Below, piece by piece: positions 38,549 to 44,536 of a stretch of DNA of 64,000 nucleotides. Within the stretch, counting starts at the first letter, position 1, and every line of letters starts with the position of its first letter. This DNA comes from Planctomycetota bacterium. Lineage in GTDB: Bacteria; Planctomycetota; PLA2; JAEUHO01. Made by a program: the position numbers and the translations under genes. The DNA is taken from contig CBDCTJ010000001.1 of assembly GCA_965222115.1 (NCBI GenBank), positions 416,001-480,000 on the forward strand. Direction: 5' to 3'. A model generated the notes under the pieces. That model was given only the letters and a program-made list of their open reading frames with translations, was not told the DNA's origin and searched no databases.

Positions 38549-38830
38549 CTACGGCATACGAAAGGCACCGTGCCCATCACTTGCGGGTGCGGAAGGACGC
38601 TTGCCGTCGGCATTGTCGCCATAGACAGGACGTCCCGCAGCACTCGCCTCGTCTGAGTCACTTGTGCTCTTTGATGGCGCGATGGAATCGACCGCTCCAC
38701 CGACCGTGTCCGTGAGGCTATTCCATCCCGAAGTCACCGTGTCGCCGACGTCCGAAAACGTTGAACAACCCAGCGCAAAGCTCATCGCACATACGATGAC
38801 GACCAACCCAAGAACTCGACTGCCGCGCAT
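38549..38830 (-). CDS. Small lipoprotein
   Basis: AGGAGG RBS, lipobox ALGC, Ser/Thr-rich tail. Confidence 0.75.
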   Translation of the reverse strand: MRGSRVLGLVVIVCAMSFALGCSTFSDVGDTVTSGWNSLTDTVGGAVDSIAPSKSTSDSDEASAAGRPVYGDNADGKRPSAPASDGHGAFRMP

Positions 38831-39016
38831 GGCGCCTCCTACCTACTACCCGTGTGACGCCTAAGGATACGAGATGATGCGGTCGTTGATCGCAAATGGC
38901 GGGCACAAAGATCGTCCGGGCCGTCACAACCAAACGGTCCCTTCAATTGCAAACGGCCAATGTCCTCGATGGGACACTGGCCGCACGCGGGCTCGTCGTC
39001 AGGAACGACGGAACTA

Positions 39017-39808
39017 CTAGGACGCCTTCTTCTTGACCTTCTTGGGCGTGAGCTTCCAGAGTTCGGACTGCTTCTTACGAATATCGGCAAGTTGCTTGCG
39101 AATCTCGGCTTGCTGCTTCTTCACCTTCGCCATCTTCTTGTCGTTGTCCTTCATGCGACCAACTTTACCGTTGATCACCTTCTCGGCATTGGCGAGCTGA
39201 TCTTGTTCGGTGAGAAGATTGAGGTGCTTCTTGACGACCTTGTCGAGCTTCTCTTTGAAGACCTTACTAGCCACCTTGCCCATGGCCTTGTAGAGCTTGC
39301 TGGTCTTGAGACGACCCTTTTCGAGCACGGAAATCTTTACGTTGACAGGGTCAATCAACAAGATGCGCGGTACGGCCTTGCCGTTGCCCTTGAGAATTGG
39401 GTCGGCGGCCACGGCATCGGGATGCATCTTTATGCGGCGGAAGGCCTTCATGCCAAGGGCGACCCTCTCGTCCTTGAAGACAACGCCTTCAAGCTTCTCA
39501 ACGCCATCACAGGACGCCGCGTCATCGCAGACGTAGACGATGATGGGACGATCGCTCCAACGAAGCGGTGACTGACTTGCAGCTTGCTTGGCTTCGGCCG
39601 ACTCGGCGGAATCGCCGGTGGTGATGCTCTCTTTCTTGGCAGCTACGGCCTCGGCCGACTCCCACTTAATCTCTAGCGCCGCCAGACTGGCGGACGAACG
39701 ACCATTGCATCAGCCCGCTTCAGCGGCGGGGCTTAGGAATGCTGGCACACAGAGTGCGGCAAGCATCGCGAACGCTGTAAGCGTGCGGGCGCTACGAAGG
39801 TGCGTCAT
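39017..39808 (-). CDS. Candidate exported selenoprotein A (263 aa, Sec33) with thioredoxin-like domain and coiled coil
   Basis: GGAG RBS, ATG 39808, MTHLRS..CVPAFLSPAAEAG, then TGA (39710-39712), then CNGRSS..RPIIVYVCDDAASCDGVEKLEGVVFKDERVA.., in frame with track ORF 39017-39451. Confidence 0.8.
39679..39693 (-). promoter_or_regulatory. Candidate bacterial SECIS apical hairpin (gene A)
   Basis: CCGCC-AGUCU-GGCGG at +17..+31 after the UGA. Confidence 0.7.
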
Positions 39809-39893
39809 GTCGGTTTCTCCATTACATCAATCCGCCCGTCGCAAGCGCGTCCCCGGACGGATCGCGGGATGCTTGCGCCTAGCAGGGTTTACG

Positions 39894-39932
39894 AAAAAGC
39901 GCGGGCGCTCGTCCTGAGACGAACGCCCGCGC
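39894..39932 (-). terminator. Intrinsic terminator after candidate selenoprotein B
   Basis: Minus strand GCGCGGGCGTTCGTC-TCAG-GACGAGCGCCCGCGC-TTTTT. Confidence 0.85.
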
Positions 39933-39940
39933 GTGAGGAT

Positions 39941-40744
39941 TTAGGACTTCTTGGATGCTCTCGGTGTGAGCTTCCAGAGTGCAGACTCCATTTCGCGGAG
40001 TTTCTTCTGCTCGCCTTCCAAGACCTCAAGCTTCTTCTTGAGCTTCTTGGCGGACGATGAATCGGAATCCTTCGCCGCGGTCAGACGCTGGCGCGCCTGC
40101 TGAACACGGGGATGAATCTTGTCGTATTCGCTGAGAAGCTTGACGTGCTTCTTCACTACGCCATCGAGCGACTCCTTGTAGAAAGGCTTCGAAATCTTTT
40201 TCATGGCGTTGTAGATGGGGCGGATATCTACGCGCTTGCTTTCAAGCACGACGACCTTATCTCGGGCCAAGTCCATAATGATCAAGCGAGGATCTGCCTT
40301 GCCGTGACCCTTGAGTAGGGATTCATCTGCGGCATCTTCGGGAGACATACGAACCATACGGAAGGCCTTGGACGCCAAGGCGACCTTCTTGTCCTTCCAC
40401 ACTTTTTCTTCGAGGCGCTCAGCCACTTCGCAGGTGCCGAGTTCGTCACATACCAGCACCATCAAGGGGCGCGAACGAAGTTCTTCGAGCTTGGCGTCGG
40501 CAAGCTTCTTAGCCGCCTCTGCAGACTCGTTATCGACACCTGTAACTTCACCCGTCTCGGGCATGAGTCGCTCAACGCGATCCCACTTGACTTGCATAGC
40601 CCGTTGGGCATCGGGTGAAGGAGCTGAACTACCACGCGACCGACCGCCGCCACCACCACCGGGGCATCAGCCAGCTTCGGCGGCGGGACTCCACATAAAC
40701 AAGGAAAGCGATAGGGCGAGGCCCGCAGTAATCAGCTTCTTCAT
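39941..40744 (-). CDS. Candidate exported selenoprotein B (267 aa, Sec26), paralog of A
   Basis: GAGGAG RBS, ATG 40744, MKKLITAGLALSLSLFMWSPAAEAG, then TGA (40667-40669), then CPGGGGGRSRG..RPLMVLVCDELGTCEVAERLEEKVWKDKKVA.., in frame with track ORF 39941-40597. Confidence 0.8.
40636..40650 (-). promoter_or_regulatory. Candidate bacterial SECIS apical hairpin (gene B)
   Basis: GCGGC-GGUCG-GUCGC at +17..+31 after the UGA, the same register as gene A. Confidence 0.7.
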
Positions 40745-41128
40745 TCGGACGAACTCCTCTTGTGAAAAATGAGCGGAACCTCTAGGACATGGGACGAGCC
40801 GATGCGTGTGTAGGTTTCCCACGAATCTCCCGATCGGCAGATTCTGCTGGACGCACGCACCTCTTCGTTCAGCCGCCAAAAAGCTAAACGTCGAGTAAGG
40901 CCTGATTCCATCGCAGATTCTACACGTTCGTGCCCCGAATTCGCGTGATCGCAAGCCGTCTACCGGGCTCAAGGTCCCCGTTTCTCGGCCTTTCCGGGCT
41001 AATGAGCGGTCAGGGGCGTGAATTTTCGAGTATTTGGTCCCCATTTTCGGGGACCTATAGCGACTCGGACCTGTCAGTACGTCAAAAGTGCGAAGGACTC
41101 GACAGGAACAATAAGAAGGGCCTACGTC

Positions 41129-44100
41129 TTGAAACATACAAACAAACTCGTAACATACCGAGCAACGGCGGTGACAACGATCTGTGTCCTGGCACTGTCA
41201 ATCGCATCGCTCGCGCCAACGACGCAGTCCCATGCAGAAGAACATGCCGAAACGCTTCTGCTTCAACAGCCTGCGATGAACAAGACGCATGTCGTATTTG
41301 TCTATGCGCGAAACCTATGGATCGTTCCACGTGCCGGTGGAACGGCGCGCGCGCTAACCTCGCATGTGGGAACCGAAACACGCCCCCGCATTTCCCCGGA
41401 CGGCTCCACGCTTGCCTTTAGTGCCGAATACGGTGGCAACTATGACGTCTACACGATGCCGATAACCGGCGGTACGCCCACGCGCCACACGTGGCATCCC
41501 GGCATGGACCTTGTGGAGGGCTGGCATCCGAACGGAAAGCAGGTCCTCTTTACAAGCCGACGCAGAAGCGGTACGCCGGTGTCGAAGGCGTATCTGACCG
41601 TAGAAGCCGCCGGCAAGGCTGCAACGCAACGATTCGTAGAACCGCTGCCCTTACCACGTGTTGGCCGCGCAGCATTCGACACCACCGGAAAGCGCATTGC
41701 CTATGCACCAATTCGAGACGCGTTTCGCACGTGGAAGCGCTATCGCGGCGGGCAAACGTCGCCCATGTGGATCTACGACACGGAGACGCATGAGGTGGAG
41801 GTCGTGCCCCACGAAAACGCAAGTGACACCATGCCATGTTGGATTGGCGATGAGCTCTACTTTGCGTCTGATCGCGCTGACCAGATGAACGCATACCGCT
41901 ACAACGCAGAGGCAAAGTCGGTGGAGGCGCTTACTGAGTTTACGCGTGACGGATTCGGCGTTCGCACCATGACCGCAGGACCCGATGGACTTGTCTTTAC
42001 CCGGGGCGGTGCAATCCACATCCTCGACCCGAAAACCAAAGCGGTCACACGACTTCGCATTCATGTGCCCACCGACGGGCTCGCGCGGCTCCCACGCTGG
42101 GAAAAGGCGAGTAAATCGATTCACAATGGAGACGTGTCTCCCAACGGCAAACGGGCTGTACTTGAGGTGCGCGGTGAAATTGTAACCGTGCCTCGCGAAC
42201 ACGGGGGACCCCGCTACTTAAGTCGAAGCGAAGGCGCCAACGACCGATTCCCCACGTGGAGTCCCGACGGAAAACGGATTGCGTGGTTCTCCGATCGAAG
42301 CGGCGAGTATCAATTGCTGGTTCGCGATCGACTCGGAGAGAAGCCCCCCAAGGCCTATGCCATCAACGACACCGCGGGCTACTACGCAGATCCGCAATGG
42401 AGTCCGGACGGCAAGCACATTGCGTTTTCCGATAAGTCCAACCGCGTCTTGGCTTTGAAACTTGCGGATGGCTCACTCAAGACCATTTCGCATAGTCAGG
42501 GCTCGCTTGGGTATTGGCGTCCGTATGCGACGTGGTCACCCGATAGCAAGTGGCTTGCGGTAGAAGAGAAGAATCCCACCACAGCCTACGGTGGCATCAA
42601 ACTCTATGAGCTTGCCACCGGTGATTCAAAAACGATCACAGATGCATTCGGCGATTCGCACTCGCCAGCATTCACCCGCGACGGCAAACACCTTTACTTC
42701 TGCTCAAGTGCACAAACGGGCCCGAATCAATTCGGACTCGACATGAGCGCACACCGCATGAAGTACGCCAAGAGCAATATGTATCTGGTCGTACTCAAAA
42801 AGGACGGCAAGAACCCCTTAGCACCGAAGATCGACGAAGGCATTGACAAGGACGATAAGAAAGGAAAGAAAAAGAAGAAAGCAAAAGACGAAGAGAAGCA
42901 AGACGGTGAAGGAGAACAAGACGCCGCCGATAAGGAAGACAAAGAAGAGAAGAAGGAAAAGCGCGACGACGAAGAGAAAGAGGACACGTCAGACGCTTCC
43001 AAGAAAAAGAAGGAAGACAAGCCGTCGGTGGATCTGGAGGGAATCGAAGATCGAATCTTGGCTGTACCGGGTTCAAGGGGGAACTACTTCGGACTTGGCG
43101 CTACCAAATCAAAGATGCTTTACTTGGAATGGGGCGAGGGTCGCAAGCGAAGTCTCCGCGCCTACGACCCCAAGACCAAGAAGCACAAAAATCTCGTATC
43201 CGGCTGCACGCGGTACGCCATCAGTAAGAAGGGCACGACCGTGCTCTTCAAGAAGGGTGATGCATGGTCCTTGATGGACGAGAACGGCAAGTCCGAAAAG
43301 AAGCTACCCACGTCAAGCGTTTCCGTCCGCGTGGACCCGGCCAAGGAGTGGCGCCAAATCCTTCGCGAAGTCTGGCGCATTCAGCGCGACTTCTTCTATG
43401 ACCCCAATCTGCACCATGTGAATTGGGATGCCATGTGGGAGCGCTGGAGTGCGTTCTTGCCCTACGTACAGCATCGCGAAGATCTCAATGTGATCCTGCA
43501 GGAGATGATGGGCGAACTGTGTTGTGGCCACGAATACGTGGGCGGTGGCGAGATGGATGAAGCCGAAGAAGGACCGCCCGTGGGTCTCCTTGGCGCCGAC
43601 ATCGTTCGTGCTGACGACGCATACGTCATCAAGAAGATCTACCGCGGCCAAAACTGGAATCCAGGGCTGCGATCACCGCTCACTGAACCGGGCATTGATG
43701 TGCGCGTTGGAGACATCGTGCGCTCCGTCAACGGCCGACTCGCATCCGACAGCGTAAACATCTACGCGCTCATGGAAGGCACCGCCGGTGTGCCCACGCG
43801 CATCACGTTTTCACGTCCCGACAGTACAGAAAAGGAGCGGACGTTTACGATTGTTCCCATCGCAAGCGAAAACCGCTTGCGTCGCCGCGCGTGGGTGGAA
43901 GCCAACCGCAAACGCGTAGACAAACTCTCCGGCGGTCGGCTCGCCTACATTTACATGCCCGATACGGGCCGTCGTGGACTCGCGGCTTTTGATCGTGATT
44001 ACTACAGCCAACTCGACAAGGAAGGCGTGGTCATCGACGAACGCTTCAATGGCGGCGGCAAGATTGCGGACTACGTCGTCAATGTCCTCGCGCGTAAGGT

Positions 44101-44536
44101 GCTCTGCTACTGGATGAATCGCGAAGGGTGGGTTGGACGCACGCCGTTCGGCACCATCGAAGGCCCCAAGGTAATGATCATCAACGATCGCGCCGGATCG
44201 GGCGGCGACGCCATGCCGTGGTTGTTCCGCAAACAGGGCGTTGGCAAGCTAGTAGGCACGCGCACGTGGGGCGGCCTTGTGGGCATATCCGGCTATCCTG
44301 ATCTCATGGATGGCGGATTCGTAACTGCCGCGAGCTTTGGCATTATGGACACCGACGGCAAGTGGATTATAGAGAACGAAGGCGTCACACCTGACGTCGA
44401 GGTTCAGCAGTGGCCGCGCGACGTCATCAAGGGAGGCGATCCGCAATTGGAGAAGGCGGTGAAACTAGCGCTCGAAGCACTAGAAAAATCGCCACGGCGC
44501 AAGCCCCCTGTGTATGTCAAGCCCGCGGCGCGATAA
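41129..44536 (+). CDS. Tricorn protease (S41 family)
   Basis: PD40 propellers (SPDG repeats), WKRYRGG, MMGELCCGH, PDZ, AYIY.PD, DERFNGGG, AGSGGD, GTRTWGG, ENEGVTPD. Start uncertain. Confidence 0.96.
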   Translation: MKHTNKLVTYRATAVTTICVLALSIASLAPTTQSHAEEHAETLLLQQPAMNKTHVVFVYARNLWIVPRAGGTARALTSHVGTETRPRISPDGSTLAFSAEYGGNYDVYTMPITGGTPTRHTWHPGMDLVEGWHPNGKQVLFTSRRRSGTPVSKAYLTVEAAGKAATQRFVEPLPLPRVGRAAFDTTGKRIAYAPIRDAFRTWKRYRGGQTSPMWIYDTETHEVEVVPHENASDTMPCWIGDELYFASDRADQMNAYRYNAEAKSVEALTEFTRDGFGVRTMTAGPDGLVFTRGGAIHILDPKTKAVTRLRIHVPTDGLARLPRWEKASKSIHNGDVSPNGKRAVLEVRGEIVTVPREHGGPRYLSRSEGANDRFPTWSPDGKRIAWFSDRSGEYQLLVRDRLGEKPPKAYAINDTAGYYADPQWSPDGKHIAFSDKSNRVLALKLADGSLKTISHSQGSLGYWRPYATWSPDSKWLAVEEKNPTTAYGGIKLYELATGDSKTITDAFGDSHSPAFTRDGKHLYFCSSAQTGPNQFGLDMSAHRMKYAKSNMYLVVLKKDGKNPLAPKIDEGIDKDDKKGKKKKKAKDEEKQDGEGEQDAADKEDKEEKKEKRDDEEKEDTSDASKKKKEDKPSVDLEGIEDRILAVPGSRGNYFGLGATKSKMLYLEWGEGRKRSLRAYDPKTKKHKNLVSGCTRYAISKKGTTVLFKKGDAWSLMDENGKSEKKLPTSSVSVRVDPAKEWRQILREVWRIQRDFFYDPNLHHVNWDAMWERWSAFLPYVQHREDLNVILQEMMGELCCGHEYVGGGEMDEAEEGPPVGLLGADIVRADDAYVIKKIYRGQNWNPGLRSPLTEPGIDVRVGDIVRSVNGRLASDSVNIYALMEGTAGVPTRITFSRPDSTEKERTFTIVPIASENRLRRRAWVEANRKRVDKLSGGRLAYIYMPDTGRRGLAAFDRDYYSQLDKEGVVIDERFNGGGKIADYVVNVLARKVLCYWMNREGWVGRTPFGTIEGPKVMIINDRAGSGGDAMPWLFRKQGVGKLVGTRTWGGLVGISGYPDLMDGGFVTAASFGIMDTDGKWIIENEGVTPDVEVQQWPRDVIKGGDPQLEKAVKLALEALEKSPRRKPPVYVKPAAR

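Follow-up and report, generated by a model that had tools for sequence, protein, structure and literature searches.

The 64,000-nucleotide stretch analysed here (the window; positions 416,001 to 480,000 of the forward strand of contig CBDCTJ010000001.1, assembly GCA_965222115.1, from a Planctomycetota bacterium) carries on its minus strand two tandem genes, A and B, each with an in-frame UGA codon behind a short leader and a small hairpin just 3′ of that codon. We argue, with considerable confidence, that the two genes are paralogues from a widespread, unnamed family of exported selenoproteins with a thioredoxin fold, and that the hairpins are canonical bacterial selenocysteine insertion sequence (SECIS) elements.

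Gene A (39017..39808, minus strand) comprises 263 codons when TGA is translated as selenocysteine (Sec, U) and ends in a stop codon at 39019-39017. Its UGA, codon 33 (39710..39712), follows a signal-peptide-like leader of 32 codons (39713..39808) that is predicted from the sequence and ends in PAAEAG. Gene B (39941..40744, minus strand; 267 codons) shares 38% identity with gene A in alignment and begins in the same manner, with a leader of 25 codons (40670..40744), predicted likewise and also ending in PAAEAG, and a UGA as codon 26 (40667..40669). Both UGA codons were read directly from the sequence. The two products follow a common plan of a basic then hydrophobic leader, U-C, a conserved domain and a Lys-rich tail ending in LWKLTP. 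In gene A the signal-peptide-like N-terminus and Gly-Sec-Cys are followed by a domain with a thioredoxin fold and then by a helical hairpin rich in Lys; gene B has the same architecture except that its Sec-Cys is followed by a Gly-rich insert, which gene A lacks. The gene A leader has a basic N-terminus, a hydrophobic helix at residues 7-18 of its AlphaFold2 (AF2) model and an A-x-A motif, and the leaders of both genes are putative signal peptides.

With the first base after the UGA numbered +1, the core of the gene A SECIS, CCGCC-AGUCU-GGCGG, lies at +17..+31 (39693-39679, minus strand) and forms a 5-bp stem with a 5-nt loop. An extra A-U pair can close the loop, giving a 6-bp stem with a GUC triloop, and two more pairs are possible below a bulged U, which extends the element to +14..+33 (39677..39696). 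The predicted energy is -8.6 kcal/mol for the 15-nt hairpin and -10.6 kcal/mol for the 20-nt form. The SECIS candidate of gene B, GCGGC-GGUCG-GUCGC, occupies the same +17..+31 (40636..40650, minus strand) according to sequence and fold, again with a 5-bp stem and a 5-nt loop and with one G-U pair.

An initial annotation of this DNA had described these hairpins as covarying SECIS elements in identical register. Re-reading the sequence bore out its description: the stem and loop lengths, the register, GUC at +23..+25 in both genes, the pair differences (17-31 is C-G in gene A and G-C in gene B; 20-28 is C-G in gene A and G-U in gene B) and the encoded peptides, SSASLA and GGGRS, are all as given there. 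The differences between the two genes are not evidence of covariation, however, because the hairpin stretches encode non-homologous peptide; they are two independent hairpins that share a register. Moreover, when the peptide was fixed and codons were redrawn 2000 times from genome codon usage, a consensus-like hairpin arose in 17% of the synonymous redraws of gene A and in 65% of those of gene B, in which it is thus expected from the Gly-rich peptide. The significance of the hairpins comes solely from comparison across a family of 75 homologous genes.

That family was assembled by a six-frame search of 61 related genomes, which gave matches in 41: 27 of the 28 genomes of the same family, all 11 of a sister family of the same order, two of 21 from other parts of the phylum, and the genome to which the window belongs. 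From these 41 genomes 70 loci were fetched and 75 homologous genes located, leaving out about 35 weaker matches, mostly inside open reading frames (ORFs) of 700-1600 aa or in contig-end fragments. The window's own genome holds a third paralogue (C1:499761-500747), and a locus search with P0001 returned two related loci. In 75/75 homologous genes, reading upstream from the conserved domain, the first stop in frame is a UGA directly behind a signal-peptide-like leader. The dyad at this position is G-U-C in 44 genes, C-U-G in 28, and U-G-U (L048), U-U (L070) and G-U-N (L085) in one each. L048 (UGA-GGC-UGA, oriented position 197) and L070 (UGA-UGA, position 372) thus carry double Sec codons at the dyad with a single downstream hairpin.

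Selection on the hairpin as RNA

Stems of at least 6 bp occur within +1..+42 in 68 of the 75 members, as compared with a mean of 27.4 and a maximum of 38 in 200 synonymous-codon resamplings; for stems of at least 5 bp the count is 72/75, where the resamplings average 51.9 and peak at 64. Most members (56/75) share the hairpin top GCC-(A/G)GU-NUG-GC, which encodes x-A-(S/G)-x-(A/D)-x, and its synonymous positions are strongly biased. The loop Ser codon is AGU in 48/50, although AGU accounts for 2.5% of the 806 other Ser codons of these genes and for 12.4% of Ser codons in the genome as a whole. The two AGC exceptions are paralogues with inserts that move the motif at least 24 nt farther from the UGA, and in these a nearer hairpin with a GGUC loop is present. 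Likewise, the Ala before the loop Ser is GCC in 52/56, the codon after it ends in UG in 47/56, and the loop Leu codons are CUG (15), UUG (11) and CUC (1), as against 65% CUC among Leu codons elsewhere.

Covariation was counted in 47 distinct 27-nt hairpin windows of the gene A class only. Three stem pairs are invariant across them. Pair 8-20 is GC in 22, CG in 16, AU and GU in two each, UA and UG in one each and unpaired in three, while pair 7-21 is CG in 35, GC in eight and unpaired in four. The covariation score of 0.275 compares with 0.094 for shuffled alignments, none of 500 shuffles reaching it, and with at most 0.109 when the pairing is slid. Hence, in the gene A class the structure is kept by compensatory change at two pairs with two to six pair types each. 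The switch of pair 7-21 from C-G to G-C in eight sequences entails two amino acid replacements, Ser/Pro to Gly and Ala/Glu to Arg, that compensate each other in the RNA.

Classes whose post-UGA peptides are unrelated carry hairpins of their own, in which compensatory changes also occur, such as CGGUGAG-GGUC-CUCACCG and CGGUCAG-GGUC-CUGACCG, and a further non-homologous class has GCCGCGGG-GGUCG-CCCGCGGC. Among the members that lack the conserved core, 19/23 have consensus-like hairpins, against a mean of 9.6 and a maximum of 15 in 300 resamplings, and the gene B hairpin gains support because this core-less class exceeds its resampled expectation. Taken together, these comparisons argue for SECIS function with high confidence for gene A and moderate confidence for gene B, so that the assignment made in the initial annotation rests on strong evidence in the one and moderate evidence in the other.

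The identical register of the two hairpins did not prove to be a rule. Among the members that have a hairpin (67/75), the position of the first G in the loop ranges from +17 to +30, with peaks at +17 and +23. The lower extension of gene A with its bulged U was considered as a conserved part of the element and rejected, as it is paired in 45-51% of homologues, no better than an unbulged alternative. A covariance model, R1, built from the 47 family hairpins and run against the 4.55-Mb genome, found gene A at 33 bits (E 5.6e-6), the next match being at E 1.64; gene B, the third paralogue and the other selenoprotein genes are all absent from the six matches that it makes at E <= 10. R1, which recovers gene A alone, was therefore discarded as a general mining tool, and a SECIS covariance model made from a single family does not transfer to other families. 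The proposal that the element could be used to mine further selenoproteins holds instead for a loose descriptor combined with coding and homology filters.

The alternative with most to be said for it, which we nevertheless consider improbable, is that the hairpins are by-products of the conserved peptide S-A-S-L-A-A and of GC-rich Gly codons and have no recoding role. Four of the six possible gene A pairs are fixed once S-A-S-L-A-A is written UCN GCN AGY CUN GCN GCN, and the gene B peptide readily yields a consensus-like hairpin in the redraws (65%) described above. The peptide could also be conserved for the protein's sake: the SASLAA stretch, residues 39-44, is a confident short helix on the domain in the AF2 model, and the peptide motif persists in paralogues that have it more than 35 nt from the UGA. 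However, the constraint extends to synonymous sites, in the choice of AGU (48/50 against 2.5% elsewhere) and of UUG and CUG rather than CUC; the wobble pair shows covariation, with G-C, C-G and A-U forms; amino acids change in RNA-compensating pairs in the eight sequences noted above; and the family's hairpins far exceed the expectation from the peptides. In addition, only 1/8 homologues with Cys at the Sec position retains A-S-(L/M/V), and this loss in 7/8, seen in protein sequences, fits a peptide that is imposed by the RNA.

Because the hairpin top GCC-AGU-NUG-GC also encodes A-S-(L/M/V)-A, RNA and protein are constrained together. The family thereby offers a clean internal control for separating RNA from protein constraint, in the synonymous codons of the loop, in the relaxation seen in paralogues whose motif has drifted and in the relaxation seen in Cys forms.

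Cysteine forms, fold and annotation of the protein family

A profile search of 1.84 billion representative proteins (clusters at 50% identity) returned 643 matches at a threshold of E <= 0.001, of which 377 pass E <= 1e-10 and 91 pass E <= 1e-30. The majority start at profile position 35, immediately behind the UGA; P0012 and P0014 have the N-terminus MAAL, their called start being the NUG codon of the SECIS loop itself. Since gene prediction places the start of most members behind the UGA, in many cases on that NUG codon, the 643 representative clusters mostly appear among public proteins without the signal peptide and the Sec/Cys dyad.

Among the 150 of the 643 matches that were listed, all 11 that start at profile position 11 or before are uninterrupted Cys forms without a UGA. 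Eight of these were aligned with the Sec forms and have Cys at the dyad, in a Sec column that is at least 90% invariant; the exception is P0071, with His at the Sec column and Cys at the next position. Such Sec/Cys pairing is the classical SECIS-independent criterion for selenoproteins and thus supports a selenoprotein identity. The existence of Cys forms in the wider protein library also rules out a family that uses Sec only, as the 75/75 UGA codons in the sampled order might have suggested.

These data bear on a second alternative, in which the UGAs are true stops that end a short leader ORF, the domain is translated from an internal start such as the loop NUG, and the hairpin is a coupling or regulatory element. 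In keeping with it, most database members, P0012 and P0014 among them, are called from just after the UGA, and the loop codon is AUG, GUG, UUG or CUG in 47/56 members. In gene A, however, the loop codon is CUG, and the ORF listing contains no ATG, GTG or TTG in the frame from the UGA to 39451. The 86 codons that follow the UGA without a start are conserved in homologues, including the invariant W49 and P88, and the gene A UGA must therefore be read through. Moreover, a leader resembling a signal peptide would export nothing, the residues C-x-G-R-S from the UGA to the loop are conserved in homologues, the Cys-form homologues are translated continuously through the UGA position and the genome has a full Sec machinery. 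We regard termination at these UGAs as highly unlikely.

The AF2 model of the gene A product, made from a 51-sequence alignment, has a pLDDT (predicted local distance difference test score) of 85.5 and a pTM (predicted template modelling score) of 0.78; confidence falls below 50 at residues 22-33, from the leader end to the Sec codon. The top 10 Foldseek matches in the Protein Data Bank (PDB) are thioredoxin-fold domains (DsbD-gamma, ERp19, a thioredoxin and AGR2; E 2e-3 to 6e-2 over the list), and nearly all remaining matches are likewise thioredoxin-fold. None reaches E <= 0.001, the best being DsbD-gamma 1vrs_D at E 2.2e-3 with a TM (target) of 0.57. A profile search of PDB sequences similarly gave AGR3 (3ph9_A, E 0.0038). 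Pfam Thioredoxin_7 matches gene B at E 3.6e-4 and 21 bits, below its 27-bit gathering cut-off; gene A has no Pfam match and no Pfam family reaches its cut-off for either gene. In NCBIfam release 20.0 the best matches, at E 0.016 and 0.059, are to unrelated models and far below cut-offs. The invariant columns of the family are the dyad, W49, P88 and F123, and the position equivalent to a CxxC is not conserved.

Among the matches listed, no database member of the family carries a name. The family table in the part of PMC13188914 available to us contains no family with an N-terminal G-U-C or C-U-G dyad. BSepDB (PMC13326102) comprises 111 families and reports that 87.4% of its entries have a canonical SECIS, and Planctomycetota are absent from its main text; the portion of PMC4807772 at hand describes selenoproteins in other Planctomycetes and does not mention this family. 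The family of genes A and B is thus apparently undescribed, although supplements of the cited papers may list it.

The family's sole invariant redox feature would be the vicinal Sec/Cys dyad with which the mature protein begins. For cleavage of the leader, both signal peptidase I (A-x-A before G-U-C) and a lipobox (F-A-G-C-U, I-G-G-C-U) were considered. A more far-reaching joint reading, which we put forward tentatively and which could well fail in one or other of its parts, is that an undescribed exported family (643 clusters at 50% identity) uses a terminal chalcogen dyad (U-C, C-U, U-G-U or U-U) catalytically next to a peptide imposed by the SECIS. The dyad would be carried by a flexible arm at the N-terminus of a thioredoxin fold without a conserved CxxC, as a possible inverted analogue of the Gly-Cys-Sec-Gly tail of thioredoxin reductase, and the A-S-(L/M/V)-A turn would be kept in Sec forms and lost in 7/8 Cys forms.

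Outside the two genes, a hairpin resembling an intrinsic terminator, with 15 pairs followed by TTTTT, lies between genes B and A (39899..39932, minus strand). Directly upstream of gene B the opposite strand carries an ORF of 1172 codons (window 41018-44536, plus strand).

Selenocysteine machinery and other UGA-containing genes of the genome

The window's genome contains selB (346.6 bits; cut-off 242.25), a tRNA-Sec (71.6 bits; gathering score 47), selA (480.7 bits) and selD (150.6 bits; L108, C1:654443-655201, minus strand). The selA gene is intact but split between the start of contig C7 and the end of contig C1, and these contigs therefore abut. The selD gene has an in-frame UGA of its own (GG-U-AAK), followed by a 12-bp hairpin at +10..+41 with a loop from +22, so that comparison with selD, which the initial annotation had proposed as a check, finds a loop starting where those of genes A and B do. 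Although selB exceeds its cut-off in 40 of the 41 family-carrying genomes, it was set aside as discriminating evidence, as 54 of the 61 relatives pass regardless.

For a comparison with other selenoprotein genes, candidates were chosen by protein context from 502 coding-like TGA contexts without a hairpin filter, and 19 were tested against Pfam. In 10/19 a Pfam domain spans the UGA (Thioredoxin_2 twice, AhpC-TSA twice, ArsC, Redoxin, CMD, T4_deiodinase twice and PMSR). All ten have a 5-7 bp hairpin starting at +12..+21, with the loops cgugu, ggc, gguc, ggu, cgugc, gguc, cgugac, agguc, aguuc and caguguu. Together with the three family paralogues, 12/13 UGAs fit each of two descriptors, which fit 15.2% and 20.0% of random TGAs (25,976 in the genome). 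The genome's other selenoprotein genes thus share the geometry of genes A and B, as the initial annotation would have it. The selenoproteome of this genome is rich: at least 13 of its redox genes contain a UGA and share this SECIS geometry, which suggests that this Planctomycetota order invests heavily in selenium, and that it uses it mostly in what are predicted to be exported thiol-redox proteins.

The ten genes lie on C1 (L087, 30806-32170; L099, 255067-255885), C3 (L089, 297310-297672; L093, 119769-120755) and C7 (L088, 2272599-2273264; L090, 2027845-2028984; L094, 221125-221718; L096, 1777834-1778430; L098, 191498-192646; L100, 215766-216704). They comprise two thioredoxin-like genes, a peroxiredoxin (AhpC/TSA), ArsC, Redoxin, a second AhpC/TSA, CMD/AhpD, MsrA and two deiodinase-like genes that encode EF-hand proteins, and many of them have leader-like N-termini. 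Two flavours of loop recur: NGUC/GGUC in genes A and B, ArsC, CMD and a deiodinase-like gene, and CGUG(N) in the third paralogue, three thioredoxin-like genes, an AhpC-like gene and L105.

L105 (C3:502670-503758, minus strand) and L104 (C1:329469-331493, minus strand) look exported and have G-(M/I)-W-U-P-G at an in-frame UGA, with hairpins of 6 bp (L104) and 8 bp (L105), and the loops AGGU and CGUGU, respectively. In neither does a Pfam domain span the UGA, and the two may represent a further selenoprotein family without a name. Six further loci, L092 (C7:2599827-2601242, minus strand), L095, L097, L091, L101 and L102, are read-through candidates with consensus-like hairpins and no Pfam domain across the UGA. 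Their contexts include an FG-GAP repeat protein with G-V-W-U-C, E-A-U-G-K-C and G-G-T-U-G-R-S-S and, among thioredoxin-like sequences, F-C-U-A-N-G, A-C-T-U-N-N-G and V-U-A-P-C. Contig C6 (48,116 bases) stands apart in composition, with 39.7% G+C against 55-59% in the other six contigs, and may be foreign DNA, a mobile element or bin contamination.

The SECIS interpretation of genes A and B has to be held against several results that tell against it. The single-sequence thermodynamics of both hairpins are not significant. The initial annotation had suggested folding the stretches after each UGA, and doing so confirmed the hairpins; the minimum free energy z-scores for the 63- and 43-nt stretches are null, at -0.47 and -0.08 for gene A and +1.29 and +1.28 for gene B. 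The validated SECIS of Escherichia coli fdhF (from NC_000913.3) has a folding z of only 0.10, and the z-score test is therefore without power. The bare 15-nt hairpin of gene B, at -6.5 kcal/mol, is weaker than the -7.5 kcal/mol of the published model; it is marginal, being expected in 65% of synonymous recodings; R1 does not score it; and a metagenome scan with the gene B protein (P0002) found zero close DNA relatives for a test of hairpin covariation. In the family at large, 66/75 members fit the consensus-like descriptor and 9/75 have no such hairpin, or 8/75 under a looser spacing limit, and the homologues are mutually related, so that the counts overstate the number of independent events. 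The hairpin-filtered list was known before the comparison genes were chosen, although their Pfam support is independent of the RNA. The reading frame of selD is interrupted by several frameshifts, no more than about 1.2 kb from where contig C1 ends, which are probably an assembly error. Finally, Sec insertion in genes A and B is deduced from sequence comparison, not from experiment. Rfam covariance models run over window positions 38800-41100 gave two noise matches only at E <= 10.

The broken selD frame is the point in favour of a third alternative, in which the UGA is read without Sec, by near-cognate Trp or Cys insertion or as a recoded codon, and the hairpin is a generic read-through stimulator: if the frameshifts were real, no selenophosphate would be made. 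In bacteria the G-U of the loop is recognised by SelB. The loops of the family keep this G-U in a form that fits the consensus in the available part of PMC13188914, selD too contains a UGA in frame, followed by a 12-bp hairpin, at least 13 UGA genes with redox-type contexts are otherwise intact, and the damaged stretch of selD lies near a contig end beside an intact selA split over the join, all of which leaves very little probability to reading without Sec.

We therefore return to Sec insertion as the preferred reading. As the ribosome nears the UGA, the GC-rich stem would present an apical loop with G-U at positions 2-3; SelB, carrying Sec-tRNA(Sec) and GTP, would bind this loop and deliver Sec at the UGA; and this delivery would win the codon over release factor 2.

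Comparison with known SECIS elements and redox proteins

The bacterial SECIS consensus of the bSECISearch model, as given in the part of the 2026 review PMC13188914 at our disposal, calls for a loop of 3-9 nt on an upper stem of 4-16 bp, a G at loop position 1 or 2 with G or U as the next base, a UGA-to-loop distance of 16-37 nt and an energy of -7.5 kcal/mol or lower. The elements of genes A and B resemble it in most respects. They lie within the coding sequence just 3′ of a UGA that aligns with Cys in homologues, have upper stems of 5-6 bp and loops of 3-5 nt (A-G-U-C-U in gene A and G-G-U-C-G in gene B, with G at loop position 1 or 2 and then U), and place the loop 21 nt from the UGA in both genes. 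The energies of gene A (-8.6 and -10.6 kcal/mol) lie below the published value and that of the bare gene B hairpin, at -6.5 kcal/mol, lies above it, although the span used for the published value may differ. The C-U-type members deviate, with a 5-nt loop after 15 nt, and fit only as a 6-bp stem with a 3-nt loop.

The SECIS of E. coli fdhF, GCA-GGUC-UGC with its loop at +19..+22, can be set beside GCC-AGUC-UGGC in gene A and GGC-GGUCG-GUC in gene B. In all three a short helix rich in GC is capped by a small loop that contains a G-U dinucleotide; in fdhF, G23 and U24 contact SelB. The predicted fold of fdhF further shares with gene A a U left unpaired in the 5′ strand of the upper helix; the gene A bulge is not conserved in the family. 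By contrast, the G-U of fdhF, at +20/+21, is closer to the UGA than that of genes A and B, at +23/+24, and the long lower helix that reaches back to the UGA in fdhF is absent from both. The hairpins of genes A and B are accordingly ordinary, canonical bacterial SECIS elements rather than the lineage-specific model that the initial annotation saw in them, since their geometry fits the general consensus (PMC13188914, in the part seen) and resembles the fdhF loop. The SECIS itself being ordinary, the greater interest lies in the host family and in the tug-of-war between RNA structure and encoded peptide.

The proteins share a thioredoxin-fold central domain with Thioredoxin_7, with AGR2, AGR3 and ERp19 and with DsbD-gamma. 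They differ from these in that their redox element would be an N-terminal Sec/Cys dyad outside the fold, in that the CxxC position is not conserved and in the addition of a C-terminal helical hairpin. A vicinal redox centre at a protein terminus has a precedent in mammalian thioredoxin reductase, with its C-terminal Gly-Cys-Sec-Gly. Bacterial selenoproteins with a CU motif, SaoC and KCU-star, are listed in the accessible part of PMC13188914. Unlike in thioredoxin reductase, SaoC and KCU-star, with which there is no sequence relationship, the dyad of the genes A and B family is N-terminal and belongs to a protein that is predicted to be exported. As in these proteins, Cys adjoins Sec, 28/75 members having G-C-U-G or a similar motif, and, as in the thioredoxin reductase tail, the dyad is carried on a terminal segment, here modelled with low confidence and probably flexible.

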